DNA of 64,000 nucleotides, taken from Dehalococcoidia bacterium. GTDB lineage: Bacteria > Chloroflexota > Dehalococcoidia > SM23-28-2 > RBG-16-64-32. The stretch covers positions 301,137 to 365,136 of the forward strand of contig JBBEAZ010000024.1 in assembly GCA_040882565.1 (NCBI GenBank). The letters run 5' to 3'. Positions within the stretch are counted from its first letter, which is position 1; each line of letters opens with the position of its first letter. A program made the position numbers and the translations under genes. Positions 20,541-47,757 of the stretch are shown in pieces. Below the pieces are notes generated by a model. It ran no database searches and was not told where the DNA came from. It worked only from the letters and a program-made list of their open reading frames with translations.

Positions 20541-20568
20541 GCAGACCGTGCAGCTACAGGAGGTCGAT

Positions 20569-21228
20569 ATGTCCCCGTCGTCGCCCCTGGGGGAGACGCT
20601 ACGGCGAGCCCGCCTCGACAAGAGTGTCACCTTCGAAGATGCCGAGAGAGTAACACGCATCCCGCGCAAGTACCTCGAAGCGCTCGAACTTGAGAACTTT
20701 GGAATATTGCCCGCCCCGGTCTACGCCCGGGGTTTCTTGCGTTCCTACGCCAGCTACCTCGGCCTCGACCCGAAGGACCTCATGCCGTTCTTCCCCGTCG
20801 GCCACGTCGACGAGCCGGCGCTCGAACAACTGCCCGAGATGAACGAGCCCCGCACCTGGAACGCCAGTGGCCTCATCGCCATGGGCGTCATCGGCGTGCT
20901 GATCATGCTCGTCGTCGCCCTCTACGCCGTCGGCAACGAGAGCAGCGCCGACTTCCGCGAGCCGGGCGAACTCGCCGGCGCGCAGAACGATTCCGTGATT
21001 ACCGGCGACAACCCCGGACAGGGCGGCGGCGCCGCACTCGCCCTACCCGACCTCACCGGCCTCACGCTCGGCGAAGCTGTCCTCAAGATCGAAGAGACCG
21101 GCGCCACCTACTTCGTGGTGGGTACAACCGAGGGCGACATCCCCGTCGGCCAGGTCGTCGATCAGAACCCCGGCCCCGGCACGTCAGTCGGCGAGGGTGA
21201 TCTCGTCACGCTGACCGTCAGCCAGTAG
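20569..21228 (+). CDS. RodZ-like HTH (XRE/HTH_25) single-pass membrane protein with C-terminal PASTA domain
   Basis: N-terminal HTH LGETLRRARLDKSVTFEDAERVTRIPRKYLEALE, TM GLIAMGVIGVLIMLVVALYAV, C-terminal PDLTGLTLGEAV..GQVVDQNPGPGTSVGEGDLVTLTVS matching PASTA consensus. Confidence 0.65.
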   Translation: MSPSSPLGETLRRARLDKSVTFEDAERVTRIPRKYLEALELENFGILPAPVYARGFLRSYASYLGLDPKDLMPFFPVGHVDEPALEQLPEMNEPRTWNASGLIAMGVIGVLIMLVVALYAVGNESSADFREPGELAGAQNDSVITGDNPGQGGGAALALPDLTGLTLGEAVLKIEETGATYFVVGTTEGDIPVGQVVDQNPGPGTSVGEGDLVTLTVSQ

Positions 21229-31605: not shown

Positions 31606-31785
31606 AACCGGGCGTTCACATTGTACGCGCTTGTCCGTAGGGCTTGCCCGTATGGGCGGCGGCCTTACAAGCGAAACCGCCGGGGTGCGCCCGACGGCAC
31701 ATTCTAGGTTATCAGACGCGCTCGCAGGCTGTCGATGTTCGTTGCTGGGCCGGGAACCGGCGGTTACACTGGCGACAAGTCGCTA

Positions 31786-33183
31786 ATGCAGTCACAAGCA
31801 CAGAGCCGCGGCGGCTTCCTCTTCAACGTCAACCTTGTCCTCGTGTCGCAGTTCGCCATCTACGGCCTGGCGTTTGTCTTGCGCGTGATCCTGGCGCGCG
31901 GCCTTGGTGACGACGGGCTCGGGACCTACTCGCTCTTCTTCGTCGCCGTGCTTGTGGCCGGCGGCGTGGGCAATCTGGGCATCGGCCTCGGCAACGTCTA
32001 TTTCCTGAACAAAGGTGATTACACTTACCGCACGCTGCTGTCCGGGAGCATCGCGGCATACGGGGTGATGTCGCTCGCCGGGTGGTTGTTGATCGGTGCG
32101 TGGGGACTGGCCAGCGGCGCCGAACTGTTCGTCTCGGACGGCACGTACTGGCTGTACGCCGCCGCCCTGCCGGCGGTGATCGGCTACGTCATCTTCACGT
32201 CGTTCCTGCACGGCTCAAGCCGCTTCTTCGCGCTGGCGGCGGTCGCCGTCGTTCAGGGCGGGATCGCTGCGATCGGCGCGGGCGCCCTGCTCGCGGCCGA
32301 TGATCTGACTGTCGGCAACGCGATCGCCGTGTGGTCCGTGTCGTTCCTGGCGGCGGATGTCGTCACGCTGGCCCTGATCGCGCCGGGGAACGTTGACTGG
32401 CGGCTCGTCGTGTCGCCGCCGTTGGCGGTACTCAAGGAACAGATCAAGTACGGGGCGCAGGGACAGGCCGCAAACATAGCCGCACTGTTCAACTACCGCC
32501 TCGACCAGTTCCTGGTCGCCGCGTTCGTCTCGACGGCGGGCGTCGGTCACTACACGGTCGCTGTCGGCCTCGCTGAGAGCGTCTGGTGGATTTCTTCCGC
32601 CGTATCGATCGTGCTGCTGCCACGGCTGACAGCGATGGAGAAGGATGACGCCGAGGAAGTGACGCCGATCATCGCGCGCAACACGCTCCTCATCAGCGTC
32701 GTCGCCGCCATCGCGCTCGTCGCCGTTTCGCCGATCGCGATCCAGGTGCTGTTCGGCGACGAGTTCTATCCCGAGGCGTTCCTGCCGCTCGTCCTGCTGA
32801 TGCCGGGCATCGTCGCGGCGAGCGCGACGCGGGTGCTGGGGAGCTACCTCTTCAGCCAGGGACGCATCATCTACACGACGTTCGCGACGTTCATCGCGCT
32901 GGGTGTAACGATCGGTGCGGACCTGGTCCTGATCCCGCTCATCGAGGTCGAAGGCGCGGCGATTGCCTCATCGATCGCCTACGTGGCCGCGCTGGCCGCG
33001 ACGGCCTACTGGTACCGGAGGCAGTCCGGGCGCAGCGCGTTCGACGCGCTGGTCTGGCGACCGGACGACATCGGCTATTACATGGCGGCGCTGCGGCGGT
33101 TACGCGACCGGGGGAAGACTGACTCAACGTCAGGAAGGGCGCCGGAGGCGGGCGAGGAAGACGAGCCAGACGAAGACGGGTAG
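31786..33183 (+). CDS. wzx: polysaccharide flippase (Wzx/MOP superfamily); ORF track from 31735
   Basis: about 12-14 TM helices, MOP-family spacing, acidic C-terminal tail. Confidence 0.7.
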   Translation: MQSQAQSRGGFLFNVNLVLVSQFAIYGLAFVLRVILARGLGDDGLGTYSLFFVAVLVAGGVGNLGIGLGNVYFLNKGDYTYRTLLSGSIAAYGVMSLAGWLLIGAWGLASGAELFVSDGTYWLYAAALPAVIGYVIFTSFLHGSSRFFALAAVAVVQGGIAAIGAGALLAADDLTVGNAIAVWSVSFLAADVVTLALIAPGNVDWRLVVSPPLAVLKEQIKYGAQGQAANIAALFNYRLDQFLVAAFVSTAGVGHYTVAVGLAESVWWISSAVSIVLLPRLTAMEKDDAEEVTPIIARNTLLISVVAAIALVAVSPIAIQVLFGDEFYPEAFLPLVLLMPGIVAASATRVLGSYLFSQGRIIYTTFATFIALGVTIGADLVLIPLIEVEGAAIASSIAYVAALAATAYWYRRQSGRSAFDALVWRPDDIGYYMAALRRLRDRGKTDSTSGRAPEAGEEDEPDEDG

Positions 33184-33951
33184 GGCGAGCTGCCGGCGGA
33201 GGCGCGAGGGCTGACGGGCGAGGCGGTACAGCCACTCGAGGCCAGTGCGGCGCATCCAGCGCGGGGCGCGGCTGGTAGCGCCGGAGATGAACGAAAACGA
33301 GCCTCCCTCGGCAATAGCCACCCGGACTCCCAACTCCGCCAGGTTCTCGGCAATCCATAGCTCCTGCTGCGGGAACCCCATCGCGACAAGAAGGACGTCG
33401 GGAGCGGCGGCGTTGATCGCGCGGACAACGGCGAACTTTTCGGCGCGAGCGAAATAGCCGTCCCGGAAGCCGGCGATGCGCAGTGAAGGCAGACGCCTGC
33501 GGATCTTCTCCTCCGCTCCGGCGACTTCATCAGCCGTACCACCAAGTAGGTAAACGCTGCGTCCGGCACGGGCGAGCGCCTCGAGCATCGTCCAGGTGAA
33601 GTCGACCCCGGCCATCGCCTCCGGCAAAGGGTGACGGAGCGCGGAGGGCCGCAGCGCAAGCGATCCGAGTGAGAGTGGCAGCTGGACGGTCGCGCGCAAC
33701 TTTCCACCGGCCAGCGAGAGGTAGTGCGCCGCCCAGAGGACGCCGACGCCGTCCGGCAGGCAGAGCGCAGCGCCGTTCAGGACATCGCGGACGCGTGTGT
33801 CCCGGTGAGCACGCGGCAAGAACTCTGAGTACGGCTTGACGACGTACGCCGTCCCTTGTTGTCCTGCGAGGCGCGCGACCTCTGCCGCTGCTTCCAGACG
33901 GGTGAGCGCGTGGAAACGGACGCCGAGCACCTCGACGTCCCGGGCGGTCAC
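33130..33951 (-). CDS. WecB/TagA/CpsF-family glycosyltransferase (GT26)
   Basis: Full-length GT26 pattern (GGTADEV, AMGFPQQELW, LEWLYRL). Confidence 0.8.
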   Translation of the reverse strand: MTARDVEVLGVRFHALTRLEAAAEVARLAGQQGTAYVVKPYSEFLPRAHRDTRVRDVLNGAALCLPDGVGVLWAAHYLSLAGGKLRATVQLPLSLGSLALRPSALRHPLPEAMAGVDFTWTMLEALARAGRSVYLLGGTADEVAGAEEKIRRRLPSLRIAGFRDGYFARAEKFAVVRAINAAAPDVLLVAMGFPQQELWIAENLAELGVRVAIAEGGSFSFISGATSRAPRWMRRTGLEWLYRLARQPSRLRRQLALPVFVWLVFLARLRRPS

Positions 33952-35171
33952 CGCCGGCCTCGGCGCCGCTGCCGAGGGGCGGTCGCCGGCTCGCCGCCCA
34001 GCACCCGGTCGAGACCACGGAACGCGATCTCGGCGATGTACTTCCCGCGGATGAGGGCGCGGCCGTTCTCACTGAGGACCCGCCAGCGCACGCCATCCGT
34101 GAGCAGCATGACGACTGCGTTCGCGATCTCGCGGTCGGAGCGGGCGACGATGAGATGGTCGCCCGGCACCACATCGAGCCCGCGCGCAGCTTGAAAGCTG
34201 GCGACAACAGGGACGCCACGCGCCAGGGCGTTCAGCACTTTGAGACGTGTGCCTCCGCCGGTCTTCGTCGCCTCAACGAACACTCGAGCACGAGTGTAGA
34301 GGGTCTCGGCGTCGTCCACAGGGCCGACAAAGTCGACGGCCTGACTGGTCGTCACGAGCTTGACCAGCGACGACGGCGCATCCCGCCCGGCGACGGCGAG
34401 TCGCGCGTCCGGAATCCTTTTCGTGATGTCGGGCAGCACGCGGGTGATGAATCGCTCGAGCCCGTCGACGTTCGGCTGCCAGCTCAGCGTGCCGAAATAC
34501 AGGATCAGAGGCTCCGACGTGGCGAAGGAGAGCGCCGGCTGTCCGAGGAGCGCCGGGTCGGGGACGTTGGGTAGGATGCTGAAGCGCTTGCTGTCGCTGG
34601 CCAGGGCCGCGAGCGACCTTCTGTCGTCTTCCGAGACGGCGAAGATGGTGTCGAACCGGTTGACGAGCGATGCCTCGTAGCGGCGCACGCGACCCGCCTC
34701 TCGCCGGAGGAGGAAGCCCCTGAGGCCGCTGCCGCGCTCGGCGGCCTCACGTTGCCAGATGCGGTACTCAGCGTTGTGCTCGTGGAGTACCTTGAGGCCG
34801 GAGAACCAACCGGGAAGGTACTGCGCGACGAGCCAGCCGTCGACAAAGACGGCGTCCGGGAGGCTGGACTTGAGCTGTTCCTCGACGAGGCGCCGCATCG
34901 CTGACGATTCGTTGCGTTCAACGCTGAGGGGGACGCGGCTGAGGTAGCTGCGCGCGAGGTTCAAGGGATTGCGGCGTCGGTCCAGGACAACTGTCTGCAC
35001 ACCTGCTTCGTTGGCCCACGCTTGCTGCTCCGGGGTCAGGGGCAGGCGCGTCAGAGCGATCGCGTTGATCTCGTGGCGGGCGCGGAGGTGCTGGAAGACG
35101 CTCCATGTCTTTAGGGCGGCGCCGCTCTCCGGCGGGTAGGGGAAGTGTGAGGTGAGAAAGAGGATGCGCAT
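33948..35171 (-). CDS. glycosyltransferase family 4 (GT-B)
   Basis: 407 aa; C-terminal GT4 sugar-donor binding motifs (E..K.GGGTRLKVLNALARGVPVV). Confidence 0.8.
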   Translation of the reverse strand: MRILFLTSHFPYPPESGAALKTWSVFQHLRARHEINAIALTRLPLTPEQQAWANEAGVQTVVLDRRRNPLNLARSYLSRVPLSVERNESSAMRRLVEEQLKSSLPDAVFVDGWLVAQYLPGWFSGLKVLHEHNAEYRIWQREAAERGSGLRGFLLRREAGRVRRYEASLVNRFDTIFAVSEDDRRSLAALASDSKRFSILPNVPDPALLGQPALSFATSEPLILYFGTLSWQPNVDGLERFITRVLPDITKRIPDARLAVAGRDAPSSLVKLVTTSQAVDFVGPVDDAETLYTRARVFVEATKTGGGTRLKVLNALARGVPVVASFQAARGLDVVPGDHLIVARSDREIANAVVMLLTDGVRWRVLSENGRALIRGKYIAEIAFRGLDRVLGGEPATAPRQRRRGRR

Positions 35172-35180
35172 GCAGGTGGG

Positions 35181-35912
35181 CTAGCGCGCACCCTTCTTCG
35201 TCATCACGAGAATGACGGTGCGAAGCAGGATCATCAGGTCGACGGTCAGAGGGTGGCGGCGCACGTAGCGCAGGTCGTAGCGGACCTTTTCGTAGTGCGT
35301 GAGGTCGGAGCGGCCGTTGACCTGCGCGAGGCCAGTCATGCCGGGCTTGACCTGGTGCCTCTGCCGGAACTGCGCCGGCCACGCTGCAACGATGTCCGGG
35401 ATGTCCGGACGCGGGCCGACGAGGGTCATGTCGCCCTTGACGACGTTCACGAGTTGCGGCAGTTCGTCGACGGTCGTCTTGCGCAGGGTCCAACCGATCG
35501 CAGTGGCGTGCTTCGGGCGGCCGCGCGGGCTAAGCAGGCGGTTCATCAGGTCGCCGGTCGGGAGCCGCTCGGCAAGATCGCTGCTGGCGCGGTTGTGGTG
35601 CATCGTGCGGAACTTGAGGAAACGAAACGCGCGGCTGTTGAGACCGATCCGGTCCTGCTTGATGAGCACGGGTCCCGGCGATTCGAGCTTGATCAGGGCG
35701 GCAGCGAGCGCAAACACCGGCCAGAGTATGCCGATCATCATCCCGCCCACGGTGATGTCGATCAGGCGCTTGACCGGCGAAGTTGGCCCGGTCTCGACGC
35801 GGTCGGGGATTTCTGGATACGACTCCGTAGCCTCCGGGACGGGCTCAGCCGACTGGCCGTTCGACCCGCTGCGCGAAGCCGGCGACACCAGTTCGTCGGC
35901 CGGGTCGCGCAC
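35181..35912 (-). CDS. initiating sugar phosphotransferase (small bacterial sugar transferase, WbaP/PglC type)
   Basis: Bacterial sugar transferase C-domain ([20 protein letters not shown]); single re-entrant helix N-terminus. Confidence 0.85.
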
Positions 35913-36868
35913 TAGCGTCGCGCTCCGGCGGCGATCAACTCGGCCACCTGCGGCGTGCGCATGTGCTCTACGAGCGCCTCTCGCCAGGGACGCAGCGTGA
36001 TACCGAGGACGGCTGCGCGGTTGTTTGCGAGCGTCGAGTCGACCGGCTTGCGGAAGGGTAGGTTGAAGTCAGCCTGGACAGCGCCTTCGGTTGGCACATC
36101 GATGCCGGCGAGCCGAAGGACTTCCCGGGCCCACTCAAGCCTCGAACAACCGTCGCCCCCACCGGCCAGGTGGTAGACGCCGTACTCGCCGGTCTCGATA
36201 AGCTGTGCGATTGCCGCGGCAAGGTCGTGTGTCCACGTTGGCGTAGCGATCTCGTCTGTGACCCCGCGGACGCGGCCGTCAGCAAACGCGCGCTCGACGA
36301 TCTTCTCCGGGAAACTGACCCGTCCTGGGCCATACACCCATGAGGTTCGGACAATGTAGTGCTTCTCGGTCTCCCCCCGCACAGCGATTTCACCTGCAAG
36401 CTTCGACCGGCCATATTCGTTGACCGGGTTCGGAGTGTCCTCTTCTTCGTACGGGGCCTTCCTCGTGCCCTCGAAGACTTCGTTGCTGCTGATCTGCACC
36501 ATCGCAGCTCCAATTTGCGCGGCGGCCCGTGCCACATTCGCCGCTCCCTGCGAATTCACTTGAAGGGCGCGCCCGGGGTCACGCTCGCAGCCAGTCGTGT
36601 CGGTCCAAGCCGCGCAGTTGATGACGATCTCCGGTTCTTCGCCCGTTACAGCCTCGGCGACAGCGTCTTCGTCCGCGATGTCTAACGGTTTAGCAACATT
36701 GTGTCTGTATCGACGCTCGTGGTGGGCGTAGAGGGAAAGGTAATTGTTCTTTCCTCCCTTACGCCACGCCGCGGCGCGGCCATCGGTCCCCAGTTCAAGC
36801 TGGAGTGCACGCCCCAATTGCCCGTCTGCCCCGGTGATCAGGATGCGGTGGCGCCATTCCATTTTCAC
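35912..36868 (-). CDS. rfbD: dTDP-4-dehydrorhamnose reductase with about 30-aa low-GC insertion near the N-terminus
   Basis: RmlD pattern ([25 protein letters not shown]) interrupted by [35 protein letters not shown]. Confidence 0.8.
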
Positions 36869-37320
36869 TTAACTACGCCTTGTTCAAGCTCCTCCTGAGT
36901 GTACTCGACCTGCTCATCCTTGAGATCCGGATCGTAGGGCGGGTCAGGATAGTTGACGAGCCAACCTTCTTCCGGACCGATGTTTTCGAGGCCGGTGGCC
37001 ACGTTCTTCGGGATGAAGAGGCGTTTGGGCGCAGCTGCGTCGAGGATATGTTCTTCACGGACCCATGTCGTCCTGCCACCGGATGCAGTCGGCTGGTAGA
37101 GGATGATCCGCATGCGGCCCTTGAGGCAGACGTAGCGCGCGGACCGAACACGGTGCAGGTGATAGCCCTTGAAAGCGCCAGGCGTCGCGGCGGAGAGATA
37201 GACCTCGGTCAGGTGGCCGTCGGGGCTCTTAAACAGCTCGATCAAGAACCCGTTCTCGTTGCCGCCGTGGTCTTTGGTGGTGACGCGCTTCGCGGACTCT
37301 TCGCTGACTCGGTCGATCAT
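36865..37320 (-). CDS. rfbC: dTDP-4-dehydrorhamnose 3,5-epimerase-family cupin (short form); ORF track to 37536
   Basis: RmlC-like cupin motifs (KGYHLHR, NYPDPPYDPDLKDE); 151 aa. Confidence 0.7.
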   Translation of the reverse strand: MIDRVSEESAKRVTTKDHGGNENGFLIELFKSPDGHLTEVYLSAATPGAFKGYHLHRVRSARYVCLKGRMRIILYQPTASGGRTTWVREEHILDAAAPKRLFIPKNVATGLENIGPEEGWLVNYPDPPYDPDLKDEQVEYTQEELEQGVVK

Positions 37321-37324
37321 CGCC

Positions 37325-38365
37325 CTAGTCTGGGCCACGTGGCTTCGCTTCAGCAAGCCGTTTGCCGTACTGCTTCTCGTAGTACGCTTGGAAATCGGCG
37401 TCGCGCACCTTCTCCCACCACCAGCGGTTCTGTAGATACCACTCGACTGTCTTTTCGAGCGTTGCCTTGAAGTCGTGGCGAGGGTGCCAGCCCAGCGCCT
37501 GAATCTTCGAGGAGTCCAAGAAGTAGCCGCGGTCATGGCCTGCGCGGTCCTCGACGAAACGAATGAGGCTGCGCGGCTTCTCCAGCAGGTCGAGGATCAT
37601 TTCCGCCACCTCAAGGTTCGGGCGCTGGTTACCGGCGCCAATGTTGTAGGCCTCGCCCGGCACGCCTTCGTGGAGCAGCAGGTCGAGCGCCTCGCAGTGG
37701 TCTTCGACGAAAAGCCTGTCACGGGTCTGCTGGCCGTCGCCGTAGATCGGCAAGGGCAGCCCCTGCATAGCGTTGGTCGCGCAGAGTGGCACGAACTTCT
37801 CGACGTGCTGGCGGGGGCCAACGTTATTTGCCGGTCGCGCGACGACGACCGGCAGGTCGTAGGTCTCGACGTAGGCGCGACACTGCATCTCACCACCGGC
37901 CTTGCTCGCTGAGTAGGGGCTACGCGGCTTGAAGACGTCGGTCTCGACGGAAGGCAGGTCCGTCGGCAGGACCTCGCCGTAGACCTCATCGGTCGAGATG
38001 TGCAGGAAGCGCTGGAGGTGCATGTTCTGCCGTGCCGCCTCAAGAAGAGTGTAGGTACCGAAGACGTCGGTCTGGATAAACGAGCCGGGCTCCATCAGCG
38101 AGCGGTCAACGTGCGTCTCCGCGGCGAAGTGAGCGACATAGTCGGCATCCGGCATCAGCTTGCCGACGACCACCGGATCACAGATGTCACCCTGGACGAA
38201 GCGGTAGCGCGGGTCATCAGCGACGTCGCGGAGGTTGTCGGGGTTCCCGGCGTAGGTCAGCTTGTCGAGATTGATGACGCTAGCATCTAGATGCTCCTGG
38301 AGGAGACGGACGATGAAGTTACTACCGATGAAGCCGCAACCGCCTGTGACCAGGTAAGTGGTCAC
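37325..38365 (-). CDS. rfbB: dTDP-glucose 4,6-dehydratase
   Basis: TGGCGFIGSN, YSASKAG, full RmlB pattern. Confidence 0.9.
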   Translation of the reverse strand: MTTYLVTGGCGFIGSNFIVRLLQEHLDASVINLDKLTYAGNPDNLRDVADDPRYRFVQGDICDPVVVGKLMPDADYVAHFAAETHVDRSLMEPGSFIQTDVFGTYTLLEAARQNMHLQRFLHISTDEVYGEVLPTDLPSVETDVFKPRSPYSASKAGGEMQCRAYVETYDLPVVVARPANNVGPRQHVEKFVPLCATNAMQGLPLPIYGDGQQTRDRLFVEDHCEALDLLLHEGVPGEAYNIGAGNQRPNLEVAEMILDLLEKPRSLIRFVEDRAGHDRGYFLDSSKIQALGWHPRHDFKATLEKTVEWYLQNRWWWEKVRDADFQAYYEKQYGKRLAEAKPRGPD

Positions 38366-39501
38366 TCGGGGATCTCGATCCTGGAGTGGTCGCCGAGCGT
38401 CAGCGCGTAACCCGCGCCGCCGCCGTGCCCACCCGCCAACTCGACATTTCGGCCGATCATGCTCTTAACGATGGGCCAGTGCAGGTCTTCGATCCGGCTG
38501 TCTTCCATGACGATACTGTCCTCGATGCGACAGCCCTTGATCCGGCAGCGCGCATCGATCGAAGTGTTTGGACCGACGTAGGAGTCGATCACTTCAGCGC
38601 CCGCGCCGATGATCAGCGGGCCGCGGAGGACGCTGTTCTCGATCCGCGCGCCGGCTTCGATGACGACCGGCTCGTACACCCGAGTCTTTTCGTCGATCTC
38701 GCCGTCGCGGCGGTCGCTGAGCGTGCCGAGGACCATACGGTTGGCGTTCAGGATGTCGTCCATCTTGCCGGTGTCTATCCAGTAACGGTCCATCACCTCG
38801 GCGCGGACCCGGGCGCCGCGGTCGATCAGACCCTGGATTGCGTCCGTGATCTCGAGTTCGCCGCGCCATGACGGCTTCAGCGTCGCGATGACGTCATGTA
38901 CGGCTGGGTCGAATATGTAGATGCCGATGACGGCAAGGTTTCCCATCGGCTCCTTCGGCTTTTCGACGATGCGTGTGACAACGTCGTCCGTTAGTTGGGC
39001 GATGCCGAAAGCTTCCGGGTTGGAGACGGGATGGAGGAGGATCTGCGAGCCTTGGCCCGCGGCGCAGTGCTTCTCGACGTACGGCTGGATGCCGCCGAGC
39101 ACGAAGTTGTCGCCCAGGTAGAGGACAAATGGTGAGTCGCCCAAGAACCCATGCGCGGTGCGTACAGCGTGGGCGATGCCGCCGGGCTTGTCCTGCTGAA
39201 CGATCGTGATGTTTGCGCCGAACTGGGAGCCATCGCCGACCGCTGCCATCACCTGCTCGGCGGTGTCGCCAACGACGACGCCGATGTCGGTGATGCCGCA
39301 CTCGACGAGTTGCTCGATCGCGTAGAAGAGCACCGGCTTGTTGGCGATCGGCACGAGTTGCTTGGCATTGGTGTAGGTGAAGGGGCGAAGGCGGCTGCCG
39401 ACGCCGCCGCTGAGGACGAGGCCCTTGAGCGCGCCATCGGCGGCGCCACTCGCGGACGGGGCTGCGGGATCCCGGCTGGTCGTCGTGGTCGTGGTTGCCA
39501 T
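38362..39501 (-). CDS. rfbA: glucose-1-phosphate thymidylyltransferase (long form with C-terminal left-handed beta-helix)
   Basis: LKGLVLSGGVGSRLRPFTYTNAKQL nucleotidyltransferase motif plus hexapeptide-repeat C-domain; about 25-aa N-terminal extension if ATG 39501 is used. Confidence 0.85.
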   Translation of the reverse strand: MATTTTTTSRDPAAPSASGAADGALKGLVLSGGVGSRLRPFTYTNAKQLVPIANKPVLFYAIEQLVECGITDIGVVVGDTAEQVMAAVGDGSQFGANITIVQQDKPGGIAHAVRTAHGFLGDSPFVLYLGDNFVLGGIQPYVEKHCAAGQGSQILLHPVSNPEAFGIAQLTDDVVTRIVEKPKEPMGNLAVIGIYIFDPAVHDVIATLKPSWRGELEITDAIQGLIDRGARVRAEVMDRYWIDTGKMDDILNANRMVLGTLSDRRDGEIDEKTRVYEPVVIEAGARIENSVLRGPLIIGAGAEVIDSYVGPNTSIDARCRIKGCRIEDSIVMEDSRIEDLHWPIVKSMIGRNVELAGGHGGGAGYALTLGDHSRIEIPE

Positions 39502-39503
39502 GA

Positions 39504-40418
39504 TTAGACTAACGAGCGCCCTTTCGGCTGGTTATGCGTGTGCCAGAAAAGCGCGCGAATGGCGGGAATAGCACGGCCGATCCGCGTGGGATTACGCACG
39601 AAGTAGGCTGGGGCGTAGAACAACGCGTGCATCAGAAAGGCCGTGACGGCCTGCATACGGGTCCCACGCTTGCGCGCGAAAAGCAGTGCGTTGCGGCGGT
39701 AGAGGTAGTCGAAGCGGGCGTCTGGCTTTTGCGAGCGCGAGGCCTTGTGCCAGATGCGGGCCAGCGGCACGTAGTAGCAGTGGAGACCGTAAGCGCGGGC
39801 GCGAATGCACCAGTCAGTCTCTTCCCAGTAGGCGAAGTACTGCTCGTCCAGGAGGCCGACCTTCTCGATGGCCGAACGCGGGATCAGCATGCAGACGCCG
39901 TCCGCATAATCCCGGCGCTTGACGCGATCGTACTGGCCGGTGTCCTCTTCGCCGCGTCCGACCTGCGTCGCGACGGCGCGCCAGATGCTAACCTCGCCGC
40001 CGGTCGAGTAGATGACGCGCGGCCGGTCATAGAAGTTCGTGCGCGGGCAGGCCGCGGCGAGATCGGGCAGTTCGCGCGCGGCGTCGATCATCATCTGCAA
40101 AAACGTCGGGGCGACGACGGTGTCGTTGTTCAGGAGGAGAACGTAATCGCCATCAGCCTCCAGGGCGCGACGGATGCCTGCATTGGCGCCGCCGGCGAAG
40201 CCGCGGTTCTTCGACAAGCGCAGGACCTCGAGGAAGCTACCGAATTCTGCTTCGAGCTTGCCAGCCTCGTCATTGCGTGAGCCGTTGTCGACGACGATTG
40301 CACGGAAGGCGCCGTAGTCCACGGCCTGCAGGCTCTGAAGGCACTCACGAGTGTCGGCTAGGCCGTTCCAGTTGAGGATGACGATTGTGACGCTTGGTGG
40401 GGTGGTCATAGACTGCAT
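39504..40418 (-). CDS. glycosyltransferase family 2 (WbbL-like rhamnosyltransferase type)
   Basis: GT-A DxD (VDNGS, LLLNNDT), about 300 aa like dTDP-Rha rhamnosyltransferases. Confidence 0.8.
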   Translation of the reverse strand: MQSMTTPPSVTIVILNWNGLADTRECLQSLQAVDYGAFRAIVVDNGSRNDEAGKLEAEFGSFLEVLRLSKNRGFAGGANAGIRRALEADGDYVLLLNNDTVVAPTFLQMMIDAARELPDLAAACPRTNFYDRPRVIYSTGGEVSIWRAVATQVGRGEEDTGQYDRVKRRDYADGVCMLIPRSAIEKVGLLDEQYFAYWEETDWCIRARAYGLHCYYVPLARIWHKASRSQKPDARFDYLYRRNALLFARKRGTRMQAVTAFLMHALFYAPAYFVRNPTRIGRAIPAIRALFWHTHNQPKGRSLV

Positions 40419-40520: not shown

Positions 40521-43289
40521 TTGCTTGTGGACGCCCCCCGCTACGAATCCCAGATTGACCTTACCAACGAAAACAACTCGCAGACGCTCGTCATCCTACT
40601 CACTGGCGAAAACAAGCGTGTGCTGGAGACAGGCCCCGCTACTGGCTACGTCACCCGCGAACTCCAGGCTCGAAGTTGCAAGGTCACCGGTCTAGAGATA
40701 GACGAGCAAGCTGCTGCCATCGCTGAGCCATTCTGCGAGCGGATGATAGTCGGCGACCTCGAGAAGCTGGATTTCGCGGAGACGTTCAAGGGCGAGCTGT
40801 TTGACGTCGCCATCTTTGGCGACGTGCTGGAGCACCTGGCTGACCCTTGGCGCGTGCTGCGGGAGATACGTCCGTTCCTGGCGCCGGGCGGGTATATCGT
40901 AGCGTCAGTGCCCAACGTGGCTCACGCCAGCCTGCGTCTCTCAGTTCTGCAGGGCGACTTCAAGTACACAGAACTGGGCCTGCTGGACCGCACGCACCTG
41001 CGCTTCTTCACCCGTGAATCACTGGGCGAACTGTTTCGTGACACCGGCTACTCGATCATAGAGTGGCGCCGAGTCGTCCTCGACCCCTTCGCCACGGAGC
41101 AAGGGCTGCGGGAGTCAGACTACCCGCCCTACCTCGCCCAAGCGATGCGCAATGACGAAGAAGCGCTCACCTACCAGTACGTGGTAACCGCCGTGGTCAG
41201 CGATACGCCTATCGCGTTCAACGGACACGACGAGGCAGCGGTGCCTCGGACGGCACCGCTAAGCTCCGCGATGGCAGCGATCCGCGCCGAGGAGAACCGA
41301 ATCCTCGCGCTGGAACGACGCATGGCCACCATCACCGAGGGCTGGCACTCGCTGACGCCGCGCCTCGAGGAGGCGGAGGCGAAGCTGCTCAAAATGACGC
41401 AGCACGCCGGCAACCTCGGTAATGACCTGAGCCGAATGCGCAACAGCATCGGCTGGCGGCTGCTCCAGATCGCGCGCACGCCGATTCGAGTGTTGGCGCC
41501 GTCGGGAAGCCCGCAACGCCTGCCGCTGATCGCCGTGCGACGCGCGATCGGCCTCGCGGCGCGGCGCGGCCCCATGGCGCTGGTCAAGAAGGTAGCGAAC
41601 GTGCGGCAGTGGCCGGCGGTGATGCGCAACCTGCGTCGGCCCCAGGTCCCGCACATGGACCTGAACGCCGCGTACCAGATCTGGCTCGAACGATACAGCA
41701 TCACGCCCGAGAGGGCGGACCGCCTGCGCATCGAGGCGCTGACGCTGACTTACCGGCCGCGCATCAGCATCGTCACGCCCGTGTACAACCCGGAGGTGAG
41801 CTGGCTGCGCGACGCCATCGACTCGGTCGCCGGGCAGGTTTACGACAACTGGGAACTGTGTCTGGCGGACGACGGTTCGACAAAGCCAGGTATCCGCGAA
41901 CTCCTCGAGGACTACGGCTCGCGCGACAACCGGATCAAGGTGTCGTTCGCGGAGCAGAACGCAGGCATTTCAGCGGCATCGAACAGGGCGCTGGCTATGG
42001 CGACCGGCGAGTACGTCGGCTTGCTCGATCACGACGACGTGCTGACGCCGGACGCGCTCTACGTGGTGGCCAAGCAGCTCAACGAGCGCCCAGAGATCGA
42101 CTATATATACAGCGACGAGGACAAGATGGAGCTGGACGGCGGCCGCCTGGACCCGTTCTTCAAGCCGGACTGGTCACCGGACACGCTCTACTGCCTGAAC
42201 TACGCCACGCACTTCAGCGTCTATCGCAAATCGGTGCTGGACGGGGTCGGCGGGTTCCGGCTGGGGTTCGAAGGAAGCCAGGACTGGGACTTGACGCTGC
42301 GGGTGACTGAGCTGACGGACCGCGTCGCCCACATTGCGCGACCGCTGTACTCTTGGCGTAAGGTGCCGGGCTCGGCGGCGGCTGCCGACGACGCGAAGGA
42401 GTATGCGCACGTGGCCGCGCGGAAGGCGATTGGCGAGGCGCTGGAGCGGCGTGGCACTCCCGGCCAGGTGCTGGACGGCCCATACAAGGGTTACTACAGG
42501 GTGAAGTACGACATCATCGGCGAGCCGAAGGTGGCGATCGTGATCCCGACTCGCGACGGGCTCGACATGCTGCGCAAGTGCATCGACAGCATCCGCACCA
42601 AGTCTAGCTACACAAACTACGAGATCATCATCATCAACAACCAGAGCAGCGACCCAGCGACGCTGAAATACTTCGACCAGTTCGGCGGCCGCGTGATCGA
42701 TTACCCGCACCCGTTCAACTACTCGGCACAGATGAACCTCGGCGTGCGCGAGGCCGGCGCCGAGTACGTGCTCCTCCTCAACAACGACACGATCGTCATG
42801 AACGACGACTGGATCGAGGCGATGCTGGAGTACGGGCAGCGGGCTGACGTTGGCGCCGTCGGCGCGCGCCTGCTGTTCCCGGACGGCCGCGTGCAGCACG
42901 AGGGGGTCTACGTGGGTTGCGGCGGTGGGCTGGCGGGCCACATCGACCACAAAGGCTACTATGCCCTCGGTGAGTGCGTGCTCAACGTCTCGGCCGTGAC
43001 GGCAGCCTGCATGCTCGTGAAGGCGAGCGTTTACCAAGAGGTCGGCGGGCTCGACGAGGAACTGAATGTCGCCTACAACGACGTTGACTTCTGCCTCAGG
43101 CTGCGCGCTGCCGGATACGAGGTCATCTACACACCCCACGCCCGGCTAGTGCACCGCGAGGGCGGTACGCGCGGCCACCGCCACCCGGACGGCAACGAGA
43201 GCCTCTTCCGCAGCCGCTGGCCCAACTACCGCGACCCCTACTACAACCCTAACTTCGACGTCGACCATCCGTTTGCGCTGAAACTTTAG
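40521..43289 (+). CDS. trifunctional fusion: class I SAM methyltransferase, coiled-coil, two GT2 glycosyltransferase domains (WsaE-like chain elongation/terminator enzyme)
   Basis: MT motif I VLETGPATGY and ADPWRVL/PGGY post-motifs; about 60-aa heptad region; GT2 domain 1 ISIVTPVYN..DDGS..DHDD; GT2 domain 2 VAIVIPTRD..NNQS..NNDT; TTG start abuts a TATAAT box so the true start is uncertain. Confidence 0.8.
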   Translation: MLVDAPRYESQIDLTNENNSQTLVILLTGENKRVLETGPATGYVTRELQARSCKVTGLEIDEQAAAIAEPFCERMIVGDLEKLDFAETFKGELFDVAIFGDVLEHLADPWRVLREIRPFLAPGGYIVASVPNVAHASLRLSVLQGDFKYTELGLLDRTHLRFFTRESLGELFRDTGYSIIEWRRVVLDPFATEQGLRESDYPPYLAQAMRNDEEALTYQYVVTAVVSDTPIAFNGHDEAAVPRTAPLSSAMAAIRAEENRILALERRMATITEGWHSLTPRLEEAEAKLLKMTQHAGNLGNDLSRMRNSIGWRLLQIARTPIRVLAPSGSPQRLPLIAVRRAIGLAARRGPMALVKKVANVRQWPAVMRNLRRPQVPHMDLNAAYQIWLERYSITPERADRLRIEALTLTYRPRISIVTPVYNPEVSWLRDAIDSVAGQVYDNWELCLADDGSTKPGIRELLEDYGSRDNRIKVSFAEQNAGISAASNRALAMATGEYVGLLDHDDVLTPDALYVVAKQLNERPEIDYIYSDEDKMELDGGRLDPFFKPDWSPDTLYCLNYATHFSVYRKSVLDGVGGFRLGFEGSQDWDLTLRVTELTDRVAHIARPLYSWRKVPGSAAAADDAKEYAHVAARKAIGEALERRGTPGQVLDGPYKGYYRVKYDIIGEPKVAIVIPTRDGLDMLRKCIDSIRTKSSYTNYEIIIINNQSSDPATLKYFDQFGGRVIDYPHPFNYSAQMNLGVREAGAEYVLLLNNDTIVMNDDWIEAMLEYGQRADVGAVGARLLFPDGRVQHEGVYVGCGGGLAGHIDHKGYYALGECVLNVSAVTAACMLVKASVYQEVGGLDEELNVAYNDVDFCLRLRAAGYEVIYTPHARLVHREGGTRGHRHPDGNESLFRSRWPNYRDPYYNPNFDVDHPFALKL

Positions 43290-46158
43290 CGCGCTGCCGC
43301 TGGTAGGTCGCGTACAACGCTCCGCCAAGCACCAGCACCACGACCGTTGCGATGCTAATGCGCTGGCCCCAGACGTACTCGTCCGGACGGAACTGCATCA
43401 TCACCTCGTGCTCGCCGGCGGGCACGGCGATAACCTGAAGATCGTTGTCCCCGCGCAACACCTTCGCACCCTTGCCGTCGATCTTCACCTGCCAGCCGTC
43501 GTCGTAGCGCTCGCTGAGCAAAAGCCAGCCCCCAGCGCTAAAGTTCGTGCTTACCGCGAGGCTATCGCCGTCGTTGTCGGTGACCTCGGCCTCGAACGTG
43601 CCTTCTGCGGTCGTCGCCTCGGCGGTCGGAACGTCGTCTTCGGCGAACACAACCGACTGCGCCGGGTCGAAGCCGGCATCGGTGATGCGGATGAGAGCAT
43701 CGTCACGCGTCGGGACGACTTCCGACGCGCCAACGCCCCACGCGAGCGGCCTGGCGGCGGTGACCTCGTACACCATGCCGTCTGGCCCGTCGTAGACCTC
43801 CTTGGCCCAGTCACCGGGTGATCTCAGGGCGCGGTGCGTGAGCGTCCCATCGACAGGCGAGCCATCCACAATAAGCCGATTGACAGGGTTGGGGCTTTGC
43901 GGAGCGCCCCAGATGATCAGCGGCCTTTCCTTGGTCGCCGTCGGAGCCTCTATCACGATAGTTGGCGCCCCCGCGTATCCGAAGGGCAATTCAACACGCT
44001 GCCACGATCCGTCGGGCATTGAGCCGGCGTCGAAACTCGCCGAGGAGATCTCATGGCCCTGCGGCGCCTCAAGTACACGGATCGTTGCCTCGGTCCCGGG
44101 CGGTAGCCATCCTCCGTTGCTGACGAAGAACTCGACCGCGTCGGTTTCCGGCGGAACCCCGAATTGGAAGGTCTGGGTAACGTCACCGTACGCCGTGTAG
44201 GGTGTCTCCGCTGGGAGGAATTCGCTTACTGATGTCCATAACCCGGACGGGGTCGTGACGATGTACTTGACGCCGAGCAGCGACAGCAGGTTGCGGTTGA
44301 CCTCGCCGCGGTTTGGCGCGACACGGACGTAACCGAACGCGATGGCGCGGCCGGTGTCGTCGTCAGACATCATCGGGTCGAGGTAGTCGAGATAGGCTTC
44401 GTTGCGGTAGTGGTCGTACCCGATGATGGTGTTCAGCCCATAAACGTTGGGCGTGTTGCCGGGCATCACGTGGTCGCGGCCGTCTGACGCGATGGGCGCG
44501 ATGCGGAAGAAGCCTCCTTGTTCCTGAAGAAACTCGATCAGGGGAGTAGTCGGATAGAGGTCATCTTTATCGACTGTGGCGTTGTAGCCGCTACCAAAAG
44601 CGAAGAGGTCGAGGAAGGTCAGCGCCAGGAGAAAGGCCGCGGCCTGTCGCGCGAGCAGCGGCCTCAGGCAGGCCACCACCACCGTCGCCGCACCGAGCAC
44701 GATGAACGCGAGTTGCCGGTGGAAGGGCGTGCCGATCATCGTCCACGGAGCGGTGACGACACCATGCCCCTCGGTGATCCAGCGGAACGACTGGCCCTGG
44801 CCTCGGTCTATGTAAAGGACCGCGACAGCCATTAGCGCCACGGTTGCGACACCGGCGGTGACGGCCGCAAGTTGCCGGCGCTCACGCGCTGACGTTCTCG
44901 AATCGAGCAGCGCCGCAAGGCCTGCTGGGGCGACAAGAGCGACGGCTAGGTTGATCACAAAGAGCCACCGCCCCGCGGTGACCTGCTTGATGCCTGGAAG
45001 GTGTGCCAGCTCCTTGAGCGGCGGGATGCCGTAGACCTGCCCCGCTGCGAAGACGATTAGCGCTAGGCTGAACCAGCCCAGCCAGTTGCGGCGCAGGTGC
45101 CAGAGGCCAGCGATCGTGAGCGGGGCAATCGTTATCCCGATGTAGCCGAGCGCTTCGGGAGGATTGCCGAACGGCCCGAACCAGAAGTTCTCCGTGCCCC
45201 AGTAATCGGGAAAAAGGTTCGTCCAGGCGGTCTCCAGCGGCAAGTCGCCGAGGCCGACAGCGCGTCCGGTCTGGTAGCTACTGCCCGCAGCGCTCGATAC
45301 CGACGGAATGAGCGAATACGCCGCGAGCAGCATCCCGACGAGCCCAGCCGCCACGTAGCCCGCCGTGTCAGTGGCGGCTTCGCGGAAGCGCCGCGCATAG
45401 ACCGAAGGAGCCAGCCGCGTGGCACCGTAGAGCACCAGCACAGCACCGGTAACGATCCACGCCGGCACGTAGCCCAGGTATATCTCGATCGCGATGCAGG
45501 CGGCAGGTATCAAGAGATACGCGGGATTCCGCACTTCACGGAAACGTTCGAAGCCAAAAAGCATGAGCGGCACAACGCCAAGGCTGGCGGGCAGGTGAGA
45601 ATGCCCAAGCCAGACAATGAAGTGCCCGTTGAATGAGTAAATGACCGCACCGAGGACGCAGGCAAGCCAGGGGTATTTGAACTGCCAGAGTAGCAAGTAC
45701 ATCGCGAGGCCGGCCACCAGGATGATGATCAAGTGGTAGGCCGTATTGGCGACCTCGAAGGGCAATGCTTCGTAGACGTAGGCCGGCGGGTAAAATTGCA
45801 TCCCCAGCGCGTCGACGAGGAACGTATTGCGGTCGCTCGTGATGTAGTCGTCCTGCCACCAGGAGTCGCCGGTCCCGTTGTAGAGCGCGTAACGCCTGGG
45901 GTACAAGATGTCCGCGTCGTCGGTCTGGTAGGGGTTCTCAGGTGAGAAACCGTCGGGCGCGGACGCCTTCCAGGGATAGCTGTTGTACATCAAGTCGGCA
46001 GGCGAGATGATGCGCTGCTGGAGTGTCACCTGCCAGAAGAAGGCCGCGATGAACAGCATCAACACGCAAGCAGCGGCGACATGTGGGCACCGGAGAGCGG
46101 TCAGGCGGTCGAGGGGGCTACGGCGGGCCGGGGTGGTGGTTTCGCCCGCGGGCGTCAA
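43249..46158 (-). CDS. YfhO-family GT-C fold membrane glycosyltransferase-like protein
   Basis: 969 aa; about 12 N-terminal TM helices, large extracytoplasmic beta-rich domain, final C-terminal TM; architecture of YfhO (PF09586). Confidence 0.7.
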   Translation of the reverse strand: MTPAGETTTPARRSPLDRLTALRCPHVAAACVLMLFIAAFFWQVTLQQRIISPADLMYNSYPWKASAPDGFSPENPYQTDDADILYPRRYALYNGTGDSWWQDDYITSDRNTFLVDALGMQFYPPAYVYEALPFEVANTAYHLIIILVAGLAMYLLLWQFKYPWLACVLGAVIYSFNGHFIVWLGHSHLPASLGVVPLMLFGFERFREVRNPAYLLIPAACIAIEIYLGYVPAWIVTGAVLVLYGATRLAPSVYARRFREAATDTAGYVAAGLVGMLLAAYSLIPSVSSAAGSSYQTGRAVGLGDLPLETAWTNLFPDYWGTENFWFGPFGNPPEALGYIGITIAPLTIAGLWHLRRNWLGWFSLALIVFAAGQVYGIPPLKELAHLPGIKQVTAGRWLFVINLAVALVAPAGLAALLDSRTSARERRQLAAVTAGVATVALMAVAVLYIDRGQGQSFRWITEGHGVVTAPWTMIGTPFHRQLAFIVLGAATVVVACLRPLLARQAAAFLLALTFLDLFAFGSGYNATVDKDDLYPTTPLIEFLQEQGGFFRIAPIASDGRDHVMPGNTPNVYGLNTIIGYDHYRNEAYLDYLDPMMSDDDTGRAIAFGYVRVAPNRGEVNRNLLSLLGVKYIVTTPSGLWTSVSEFLPAETPYTAYGDVTQTFQFGVPPETDAVEFFVSNGGWLPPGTEATIRVLEAPQGHEISSASFDAGSMPDGSWQRVELPFGYAGAPTIVIEAPTATKERPLIIWGAPQSPNPVNRLIVDGSPVDGTLTHRALRSPGDWAKEVYDGPDGMVYEVTAARPLAWGVGASEVVPTRDDALIRITDAGFDPAQSVVFAEDDVPTAEATTAEGTFEAEVTDNDGDSLAVSTNFSAGGWLLLSERYDDGWQVKIDGKGAKVLRGDNDLQVIAVPAGEHEVMMQFRPDEYVWGQRISIATVVVLVLGGALYATYQRQRAKVSAQTDGRRRS

Positions 46159-46985
46159 ACCGCCTCCATGTAGTGGGGCACCGTCGCCATGTACTCGGCG
46201 ACGACCCGCTTGGCCGGGCCGTCAGCGGCGAGGCGGCCATGGTCCAGCCAAATGGCGCGGTCGCAGAAGCTAGTGATCGTCTCGGCGCTGTGAGAGACGA
46301 CCACAATCGTTATGCCGCGCTGTTTGAACTCGTGCATACGCTCATGGCACTTCTCCTGGAAGAACGCGTCCCCCACCGACAGCACCTCGTCCACGAGGAG
46401 GACTTCCGGATTGCTGTGGACGGCGACGGCGAAACCTAGACGAACGTACATGCCGGAGGAGTAGCGCTTGACCGGCATGTCGATAAATTCCTGCAGCTCG
46501 GCGAACTCGACGATCGCCGGGAACTGCTCGTTGATCTCACGCTCCGACATGCCGAGAATCGAGCCGTTAAGGTGCACGTTCTCACGGCCGGTAAGGTCGG
46601 GGTGGAAGCCAGCGCCCAGCTCGATAAGCGGCGAGACGCGGCCGCCGACGAACACCTGCCCCTCGCTCGGCGCGGTGACCCCGGCAATGAGCTTGAGCGC
46701 AGTACTCTTGCCGCTGCCGTTGCGGCCGATGATGCCCAACGTTTCGCCCCGCGCCACGGTGAAACTGACGTCCGTGAGCGCGCGAAACTCATCGCCCCAG
46801 GGCTTACGCGAGATGATGGCGGTGGCGAACTCGCGCAGGGTACGGCCGTCCTTCAGGAAGAAGCGCTTGGTGACGTCACGGAATTCGATCTCGGGCTCAG
46901 GATCGAGCGGATTAGATGCTGTCTGCAAATCCCTTTTCCATCTTCTTGAACAGGTAATAGCCGCCAAGGAACGTGACAACCGCAA
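46155..46985 (-). CDS. wzt: ABC transporter ATP-binding protein, Wzt/TagH type without C-terminal carbohydrate-binding module; start possibly TTG near 46928
   Basis: Walker A GRNGSGKST, signature YSSGM, Walker B LLVDEVL; only 276 aa. Confidence 0.85.
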   Translation of the reverse strand: MRLSRSLAAITCSRRWKRDLQTASNPLDPEPEIEFRDVTKRFFLKDGRTLREFATAIISRKPWGDEFRALTDVSFTVARGETLGIIGRNGSGKSTALKLIAGVTAPSEGQVFVGGRVSPLIELGAGFHPDLTGRENVHLNGSILGMSEREINEQFPAIVEFAELQEFIDMPVKRYSSGMYVRLGFAVAVHSNPEVLLVDEVLSVGDAFFQEKCHERMHEFKQRGITIVVVSHSAETITSFCDRAIWLDHGRLAADGPAKRVVAEYMATVPHYMEAV

Positions 46986-47757
46986 TCACAACGCCCAGCA
47001 AAACTTTCTCCACGTCCGGGTCCTCCCCGTAAAGCATCGTCCGGCGATAGGCGTCAATGAACACGGCATTGGGGTTGAGGTCGAAGAGGATCTCGTATTT
47101 GTCCGGAACGATATCCACCGGGTAGATCACCGGCGTCAGATAGAACCAGAGCGTGAGCGCCACACCAACGAGGAACCGGACGTCATGGAAGTAGAGGTTG
47201 AGCGCGGCCAGCGGGTATGTGAGCCCGAGCAGGAAGATGAGGTGGATGCCGAAGAGGAGGGGCAGCCAGTACGACGTGGCCTCGGGCAACCGGCCATAGT
47301 AGGCCATCAGCGCGCCGAGAATCACCAGCCCGAAGAACAGGTCGACTAGTTTCGTGAAGACGGCCGCCGTGGGCAAGACCTCGCGCGGGAAGTAGACCTT
47401 CGTGACGAGCGTCGAGGCATTCACGACGGAGTCGGTCCCGGACGACAGCGCGTTCGAGAAGAAGAGCCAGGGAATGAGGCCGACGAAGAGGAAGAGCGGA
47501 TACGGCAGGTCACCGGCCGGTTGCACCCGCAAGATCGTGGAGAATACGAACGAGAGGATGATCATCTGGCTGAGCGGGTTCACGAACGCCCAGGCATAGC
47601 CGAGGACCGATTGTTTGTACTGGCCGCGCAGGTGGCGGATCGTCATGTGCCAGAGCAGGTCGCGCCGGCGCCAGAAGCCGAGCAAGTTCGCGGCCATGTC
47701 GAACGGGCCGGTGGCAGTGGAAAGCGGTTGCCTGCGGAGGGATTGGGATCGAGCCAT
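46912..47757 (-). CDS. wzm: ABC-2 type polysaccharide export permease
   Basis: 281 aa, 6 TM helices, ABC-2 family pattern. Confidence 0.8.
   Translation of the reverse strand: MARSQSLRRQPLSTATGPFDMAANLLGFWRRRDLLWHMTIRHLRGQYKQSVLGYAWAFVNPLSQMIILSFVFSTILRVQPAGDLPYPLFLFVGLIPWLFFSNALSSGTDSVVNASTLVTKVYFPREVLPTAAVFTKLVDLFFGLVILGALMAYYGRLPEATSYWLPLLFGIHLIFLLGLTYPLAALNLYFHDVRFLVGVALTLWFYLTPVIYPVDIVPDKYEILFDLNPNAVFIDAYRRTMLYGEDPDVEKVLLGVVIAVVTFLGGYYLFKKMEKGFADSI

Follow-up and report, generated by a model that had tools for sequence, protein, structure and literature searches.

A YfhO-family membrane glycosyltransferase coupled to the exporter genes of a rhamnose-polymer cluster in a Dehalococcoidia bacterium: a candidate for outer-face decoration of the exported glycan

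What is the role of a large membrane glycosyltransferase encoded as the last gene of a unit that exports a rhamnose polymer? The question is raised by a 64,000-nt stretch of DNA (the window, in what follows) from a Dehalococcoidia bacterium (GCA_040882565.1, contig JBBEAZ010000024.1, positions 301,137-365,136 of the forward strand), where an open reading frame (ORF) of the YfhO family, at 43249-46158 on the minus strand, stands between the genes of an ATP-binding cassette (ABC) transporter, wzm and wzt, and that of a putative rhamnan polymerase. To our knowledge, the cell-envelope glycans of the Chloroflexota, the Dehalococcoidia among them, are essentially uncharacterised. We find that the ORF is a real gene and that its product is a genuine YfhO-family GT-C enzyme. 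We favour, in a judgement that is finely balanced, the view that this enzyme modifies the exported rhamnose polymer on the membrane's outer face, with a sugar taken from a polyprenyl-phosphate donor whose synthesis is encoded elsewhere in the genome. Coordinates are window positions; L-numbers refer to related loci and P-numbers to homologous proteins.

The gene is intact. As a first-pass annotation of the same DNA had it, the ORF encodes 969 residues; it opens with a TTG codon, its G+C content at third codon positions (0.79, in a window of 65% G+C) follows the codon-position pattern of coding DNA, and full-length homologues exist at 47-67% identity. NCBI holds an identical protein, entered as 'YfhO family protein' from a Dehalococcoidia (Chloroflexota) metagenome-assembled genome, where translation begins at Met34. 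The longer form is the better one, because the 33 N-terminal residues align to homologues that start with MTPP, because a GGAGG motif stands 5 nt before the TTG, and because this start overlaps the stop of wzt in the tetranucleotide TTGA (46155-46158, minus strand), an arrangement that reads as translational coupling. The same 4-nt overlap of wzt and yfhO is present in the called genes of L001, L002 and L003.

The family assignment is equally firm. Search with the PF09586 (YfhO) hidden Markov model, which had been proposed as a check, yields a match over residues 138-635 (E=8.1e-21) that at 74.6 bits lies well above the gathering cut-off of 28.5 bits, and all close homologues carry the same domain, in a family that is huge (88,030 representatives at E<=1e-3). 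Hydropathy and an AlphaFold2 model built on 35 homologues (predicted local distance difference test, pLDDT, 88.2; predicted TM-score, pTM, 0.89) concur in an arrangement of 13 transmembrane (TM) helices in total, with an outer domain at residues ~525-925 before the final one; the bundle, the large outer domain and the C-terminal helix are those that the first-pass annotation had recognised as the architecture of YfhO. Judged from hydropathy and charge bias, both the N-terminus and the C-terminal tail are cytoplasmic, and the loop 47-135 is outside. This first extracytoplasmic loop (45754-46020, minus strand) is acidic, with 13 Asp and Glu against 4 Lys and Arg, and contains D55 and the pair D80-D81 within a DDAD motif (D80 codon at 45919-45921), that is, the acidic, DXD-like motif in the first outer loop which is a hallmark of GT-C enzymes. 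The outer C-terminal domain (43384-44586, minus strand) is mostly beta according to DSSP analysis of the model, and gives weak local Foldseek matches to CBM6 modules. It includes a beta-sandwich insert of ~140 residues (~650-790; 43789-44211, minus strand) which is missing from L004-type relatives, as witnessed by a gap in P0009-P0011 in alignment A2. The last TM helix follows (residues 926-953; 43300-43383, minus strand; the helix of the model runs over 926-968), and then a basic cytoplasmic tail.

The fold and the conservation pattern extend this picture. At the top of the Foldseek comparison with the PDB are GT-C enzymes only, namely AftD, EmbB, ArnT, STT3, PglB, AftA and Pmt4 (probability 1.00, E from 2e-8 to 3e-3); a sequence search of the PDB, with the family profile and with the outer domain alone, returned no match. 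When the protein is aligned with 59 diverse representatives at 19-48% identity (alignment A4), D80, P62, P124, W183, G321, R552 and G915 are invariant in 60 of the 60 sequences; D80 is at least 90% conserved in alignments A1 and A3 as well, and D55 reaches at least 90%. With the PF09586 match, the fold, the topology, and the invariant D80 and its six companions, the protein is thus predicted to possess every hallmark of an active enzyme of its family.

The place of the gene in its locus is the second part of the answer. On the same strand lie wzm (46912-47757), which codes for an ABC-2 type permease (PF01061; NCBIfam galactan and KpsM permease models), and wzt (46155-46985), which codes for the ABC-transporter ATPase (PF00005; NCBIfam teichoic-acid and galactan export ATPase models). 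The likely true start of wzt is a TTG at 46928, leaving a 17-nt overlap with wzm, as in relatives. Read along the minus strand the order is wzm (47757 to 46912), wzt (46985 or 46928 to 46155) and yfhO (46158 to 43249), so that yfhO is the last, downstream gene of the transporter unit; the first-pass annotation, which had set it upstream of wzt and wzm, had inverted this order. At its other end yfhO converges on the gene of a fusion polymerase, as had been noticed, with an overlap of 41 nt (43249-43289) where about 40 had been given; in the called genes of L001, L002, L003 and L004 the corresponding overlap is 17 nt.

This arrangement is conserved. A wzm-wzt-yfhO series, convergent and overlapping with a gene for a methyltransferase-GT2-GT2 fusion, recurs in eight related Chloroflexota loci (L001, L002, L003, L005, L006, L013, L014 and L015, of which L003 and L015 break off before wzm or wzt is reached), with YfhO identity of 63-67%, and the block is then followed by GT2-rmlABCD-PGT-GT4(-WecG), where PGT is the polyprenyl-phosphate hexose-1-phosphate transferase. 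The close clade is small, since scans of genomes and of metagenomes (11-sequence alignment) gave three loci each. The association of YfhO with an exporter is nevertheless not a one-off, because P0013 (L021), a YfhO protein of only 22% identity, is also encoded directly beside wzm-wzt; the Wzt of that locus (L021:4837-6033) has a Wzt_C domain.

We may then try to understand the glycan cluster, which spans ~33.1 to 47.8 kb of the window, as a single pathway. A rhamnose polymer would be built on undecaprenyl diphosphate (Und-PP) in the cytoplasm, starting from a primer provided by the Bac_transf enzyme, a small polyprenyl-phosphate hexose-1-phosphate transferase (35181-35912, minus strand; PF02397; WcaJ, WbaP and exopolysaccharide sugar-transferase models) which is predicted to make the Und-PP-sugar. 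Adaptor or linkage-unit sugars would be added by the GT4 glycosyltransferase (33948-35171, minus strand) and the WecG/TagA-family transferase (33130-33951, minus strand), the 304-aa GT2 of rhamnosyltransferase type (39504-40418, minus strand; best NCBIfam match TIGR01556) also contributing adaptor sugars. The dTDP-L-rhamnose pathway is encoded, on the minus strand, by rmlA (38362-39501), rmlB (37325-38365), an rmlC-like cupin gene (36865-~37320), whose L018 orthologue carries PF00908, and rmlD (35912-36868); in this stretch (35912-39501) the models TIGR01208, TIGR01181 and TIGR01214 are matched above their cut-offs. Elongation of the chain, and then its capping by methylation, would be the task of the 922-aa WsaE-like fusion (40521-43289, plus strand), a putative rhamnan polymerase and chain terminator in which an N-terminal S-adenosylmethionine-dependent methyltransferase (Methyltransf_23, residues 28-180) is followed by a linker and two GT2 domains (416-574 and 669-878), with a weak match to the rhamnosyltransferase model TIGR01556. 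Wzm and Wzt would export the polymer, and YfhO, which would be made from the same message as the transporter, would move a sugar from a polyprenyl-phosphate-linked donor onto the exported chain as a side-chain decoration, its beta-rich outer domain holding the glycan acceptor.

Several precedents make this decoration plausible. In every YfhO enzyme that has been characterised, the transferred group is a single sugar, donated by undecaprenyl phosphate (Und-P, C55-P) (PMC8035078; PMC5836110; bioRxiv 10.1101/2024.05.05.592596), which agrees with what the first-pass annotation had said of undecaprenyl-P carriers used by this family at the outer face. Their acceptors are lipoteichoic acid (LTA), which receives N-acetylglucosamine (GlcNAc) in Bacillus subtilis and Staphylococcus aureus, wall teichoic acid (WTA), which receives GlcNAc in Listeria monocytogenes, and, in streptococci, Ser/Thr-rich protein regions, which receive glucose or N-acetylhexosamine (PMC8035078; PMC5836110; 10.1101/2024.05.05.592596). 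The B. subtilis enzyme, with ~13 TM helices and an extracellular region of ~390 residues before the last of them (PMC5836110), has the very layout of the window protein. The YfhO proteins of B. subtilis and S. aureus and Lmo1079 of L. monocytogenes resemble it in their PF09586 domain and architecture, and the likeness that we propose is that of an outer-face GT-C chemistry performed on an envelope polymer. They differ from it in placing GlcNAc on LTA or WTA and in being paired with CsbB and GtcA, csbB and yfhO forming one operon in B. subtilis, whereas the window gene is coupled to the Wzm/Wzt of a rhamnose polymer, has no CsbB-type partner in view and shows ~20% identity to the wider family.

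Outer-face GT-C decoration of an ABC-exported rhamnan is, for its part, established in streptococci and lactococci (PMC9574508). For GacL of Streptococcus pyogenes, and for CsdB and WpsJ of Lactococcus lactis, the substrate is a rhamnan assembled on Und-PP and sent out by an ABC transporter, which the GT-C enzyme then modifies outside with a polyprenyl-phosphate-linked sugar; it is this same logic that we propose here. The donor synthase and flippase of these systems are identified, and they are encoded alongside in the group A Streptococcus and lactococcal clusters. As to family, GacL has a PMT_2 domain, CsdB no assigned domain and WpsJ no family recorded, and none of the three is listed as a YfhO-domain protein (table of PMC8035078).

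The structural neighbours point in the same direction, as the best PDB matches of the model are GT-C enzymes with polyprenyl-phosphate donors, including AftD, EmbB and AftA. These mycobacterial arabinofuranosyltransferases, GT-C cores with large outer domains, take their sugar from decaprenyl phosphate and build upon the galactan backbone of the cell envelope once this has been exported. The comparison has to be read with the measure of its distance in mind: 9-10% identity in structural alignment, TM-scores of about 0.3, no detectable sequence similarity, another sugar and another lineage. AftD has, in addition, extracellular carbohydrate-binding domains (PMC8035078).

It is among relatives of the window gene that the supply of a donor comes into view. 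In L004, which represents the nearest sister clade (50% identity over the best segment), wzt and yfhO are separated by six inserted genes. Their products are an SLT-like/BACON protein that is secreted, an LPG_synthase_TM protein, an oxidoreductase of GFO type, a hexapeptide acetyltransferase, a GT2 of 313 residues and a DegT aminotransferase. The GT2 has two C-terminal TM helices and its best NCBIfam matches are the polyprenyl-phosphate sugar synthases AglJ, PpgS and PgfS; YfhO is the only GT-C enzyme in view there. The five inserted genes other than that of the secreted protein form a cassette (L004:4784-9503) which looks as if it supplied an acetamido sugar linked to Und-P. In L010, which has a distant YfhO, the gene is followed in a row by that of a GT2 of polyprenyl-P-sugar-synthase type and by an LPG_synthase_TM gene. 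Both relatives thus carry such a synthase and a putative flippase beside yfhO. Two other arrangements were met. P0019 (L008/L009:10001-14398) is a natural fusion of a YfhO domain (residues 1-~940) with a C-terminal MOP/Wzx-type flippase (residues ~960-1465), and gives a hint that a MOP flippase may deliver the lipid-linked donor to some YfhO enzymes. In L020:4123-10171, a tandem pair of YfhO genes is preceded by three GT4 genes and followed by one for a UbiA-family prenyltransferase, in what looks like another lipid-linked-donor arrangement.

Some observations weigh against decoration in the window itself. The Pfam and NCBIfam scans, which covered ~55 ORFs across the 64 kb, detected among them no GtrB/CsbB-type or PgfS-type synthase, no GtrA and no LPG_synthase_TM flippase, nor Wzy_C, LCP or sortase. 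A tblastn search of the window with the synthase and LPG_synthase_TM proteins of L004 and L010 gave no match, nor did such a match turn up in those loci of window type that were set against the window and the L004/L010 proteins. The only nucleotide sugar made by the cluster is dTDP-rhamnose, and the final attachment step has no other candidate in view. The window clade also has the extra outer-domain insert of ~140 residues that is absent in the synthase-associated relatives, which could mean a different substrate. Two local candidates for a role in donor supply were considered. The 304-aa GT2 was rejected as a donor synthase, as it is rhamnosyltransferase-like and has no C-terminal TM pair of the type found in the L004 and L010 proteins. 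The case for the MOP flippase at the cluster edge (31735-33183, plus strand; PF13440, PF03023, PF01943) as a dedicated partner of YfhO is weakened by its wide conservation and its occurrence apart from the cluster. A donor made by a synthase encoded elsewhere in the genome is part of the reading that we favour.

Some of the points just listed can be turned in favour of what the first-pass annotation had suggested, namely that YfhO ligates the exported rhamnan to a protein or to the cell wall. Spelled out, YfhO would perform the end step by handing over the methyl-capped, Und-PP-linked chain as one block; the recipient would be a protein (O-linked), peptidoglycan or a lipid anchor, and the enzyme would stand in for the Wzy_C-type WsaB or WaaL of the Geobacillus-type S-layer glycan clusters. 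The comparison with these slg-type clusters is apt, because the window cluster parallels that of Geobacillus stearothermophilus part by part: both have wzm/wzt, a WsaE-type methyltransferase-GT-GT fusion, a rhamnosyl-GT2, rmlABCD and a WsaP-type priming transferase. In the slg cluster, WsaE unites a methyltransferase with two domains for rhamnosyl transfer, and it is to WsaB, a Wzy_C protein, that the last transfer step is attributed (PMC2943079), whereas in the window YfhO is present and neither a Wzy_C O-oligosaccharyltransferase nor an S-layer glycoprotein target was found. WsaB/WsfB and WaaL (Wzy_C, PF04932) belong to a different family and occupy the same last outer-face slot, transferring Und-PP-linked glycans en bloc; YfhO itself has no match to PF04932, hence falls outside the O-antigen ligase family. 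As regards gene content, the expression 'in place of the expected WaaL-like ligase' is borne out: the window ORFs scanned include no Wzy_C (WaaL/WsaB-type) protein and no LCP domain (PF03816), and neither Wzy_C nor LCP is recorded among the called genes of related loci. Ligation would also fit with the lack of a donor synthase for a side-chain reaction in the window and the compared loci, with the presence in the GT-C superfamily of en bloc transferases such as PglB and STT3, both among the fold matches, with the secreted protein with a Pro/Thr linker that adjoins the block in relatives, and with the membrane protein, weakly similar to Wzy_C, that takes the slot of polymerase, YfhO and ABC module in the related core cluster L018 (L018:20302-21333, minus strand). 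That last protein was rejected as a clear Wzy_C ligase, its match (19.9 bits against a threshold of 31.7) being too low, and its more natural role, in a Wzx/Wzy pathway, would be that of polymerase; as for the secreted neighbour, the window has none. The genes for waaL are commonly encoded outside such glycan clusters, as are those for LCP proteins, so that a missing ligase gene is weak evidence. For the lactococcal rhamnan, indeed, LcpA is encoded outside the cluster (PMC9574508). More to the point, a diphosphate-linked or polymeric donor is known for no YfhO member, a full-text search of the literature returned no paper that proposes YfhO as an en bloc transferase, oligosaccharyltransferase or ligase, and the 50%-identical L004 enzyme stands, as the sole GT-C there, beside a complete supply cassette for an Und-P-linked sugar. 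What remains of the earlier interpretation is a YfhO GT-C enzyme with an acidic outer loop, whose gene stays close, in locus after locus, to those of the Wzm/Wzt and the WsaE-like polymerase in a dTDP-rhamnose cluster; the ligation of rhamnan to protein or wall, without precedent or positive support, is the less likely reading, and we hold it to be unlikely. The proposal that the YfhO of the window clade in particular took over the ligase step, bringing the whole Und-PP-linked, methyl-capped rhamnan to a surface protein or wall acceptor, seems to us rather improbable. Were it true, this would be the first polymer-transferring, oligosaccharyltransferase-like YfhO, opening a non-Wzy_C, non-LCP route for the attachment of ABC-exported glycans in monoderm bacteria and defining a new class of glycan-attaching enzyme, and the extra beta-sandwich of the outer domain would be an adaptation to a polymeric substrate.

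Rhamnan may also be irrelevant to the enzyme, if it were a protein O-glycosyltransferase which, in the way of PgtC2 (S. pyogenes) or PgfM1 (Streptococcus mutans), adds single Und-P-borne sugars to disordered, Ser/Thr-rich regions of membrane or surface proteins. PgtC2, PgfM1 and PgfM2 are YfhO-family enzymes with just this activity (10.1101/2024.05.05.592596), and the sole NCBIfam matches of the window protein are the S. mutans PgfM1/PgfM2 models, over its C-terminal 60-70 (~65) residues, at scores far under the equivalog cut-offs (32 versus 1500 bits). These streptococcal enzymes are not linked to an ABC exporter, unlike the window gene, whose coupling to wzm-wzt and the polymerase gene persists over eight loci, with a further instance in a relative of 22% identity, and speaks for a function in the polymer pathway. 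A conceivable substrate was named in the first-pass annotation, a Thr/Pro-rich surface protein at 3600-4814 (plus strand), and this protein exists as described: 404 residues, secreted, with an N-terminal TM segment or signal, a globular domain, a 145-aa linker made of 32% Thr, 26% Pro, 17% Ala and 10% Ser, and a C-terminus (FPPTGGG, a hydrophobic helix, then RTPRD) that resembles a sorting signal. Neither Pfam nor NCBIfam gives a match for it, and no sortase was found among the window ORFs scanned. Its designation as a glycosylation target is not borne out, since its gene lies 38 kb from yfhO, with unrelated housekeeping genes in between, and the related loci all lack a homologue; the protein O-glycosyltransferase appears to us distinctly improbable. 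A chance that is slimmer again goes to a joining enzyme akin to WpsJ, which would place an oligosaccharide, flipped on its lipid carrier by the neighbouring MOP flippase, onto the ABC-exported rhamnan in a dual-chain assembly. The cluster does have both an ABC exporter and a MOP flippase at its edge, its GT4 and WecG-type enzymes exceed the needs of a plain rhamnan, the P0019 fusion unites the two partners, and lactococcal WpsJ-type GT-C enzymes join Wzx-flipped glycans to rhamnan (PMC9574508). Yet the cluster has a single priming enzyme, neither PMC8035078 nor PMC9574508 names WpsJ as a member of the YfhO family, and the MOP flippase has 312 homologues, the best 120 of them at 59-84% identity, and occurs without the cluster in L017, so that it is probably a core or housekeeping gene and not specific to the cluster. 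Finally, the polymerase carries a capping methyltransferase and yet the carbohydrate-binding domain Wzt_C is missing from the window Wzt; this, with the CBM-like beta-sandwiches in the outer domain of YfhO, might evoke a non-catalytic partner of the exporter, receiving the chain or binding its cap in replacement of Wzt_C. All the family-wide invariant residues, D80 included, are retained, which argues for a working active site and makes this idea hardly credible.

Outer-face decoration of the exported rhamnan thus stays the reading that we prefer, and it bears on more than one gene. The locus is a compact, conserved and testable module made of a WsaE-like polymerase, Wzm/Wzt and YfhO, and it would extend to another phylum the logic of exporting first and decorating outside that is found in Firmicutes and Actinobacteria. 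It places YfhO enzymes, best known from the glycosylation of teichoic acids and proteins, in a recurrent connection with polysaccharide ABC exporters. The result is a well-supported refinement of annotation, concerning a known family in an under-studied phylum.

A few further features of the cluster and of its relatives deserve mention. In the WsaE-like fusion, residues ~250-400 form a helical, heptad-like stretch of ~150 residues which recalls the coiled-coil 'ruler' of WbdD-type chain-length regulators. The rmlC-like ORF, as called (36865-37536, minus strand), reaches too far in the 5' direction, which makes it run ~210 nt into rmlB; as its orthologues have 145-151 residues, the real start is near Met73 (~37320). 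In L018 and L019, loci of other Dehalococcoidia, the core of the cluster (MOP, WecG, GT4, PGT, rmlABCD and GT2) is joined to different elongation modules, in the latter to the gene of a 990-aa methyltransferase-GT4-type fusion (L019:19578-21338, plus strand), so that the chain-building part appears to be swapped as a module. Also encoded in the window are a penicillin-binding protein of class B with a MecA_N domain (17250-19472, plus strand), a Mur ligase (1429-2790, minus strand) and a PASTA-domain helix-turn-helix protein (20500-21228, plus strand); this Dehalococcoidia lineage therefore makes peptidoglycan, so that a wall-linked glycan is possible.

In several relatives a secreted protein with no counterpart in the window adjoins wzm or yfhO (L006:6628-8313, L004:3219-4694 and L007:470-3643; beside wzm in L005, L013 and L014). 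It combines an SLT-like lytic-transglycosylase motif set (ESGW...GLMQ...GYNGF) with a BACON_2 domain (Pfam matches in L004 and L007); a Pro/Thr linker is found in the copy of L006, a weak dockerin match in that of L004, and the protein could be a wall-remodelling enzyme or a glycoprotein acceptor. No gene for a BacA/UppP undecaprenyl-diphosphate phosphatase is seen near the window cluster; in L006 there is one (5257-6141, minus strand), 2.3 kb upstream of the cluster.

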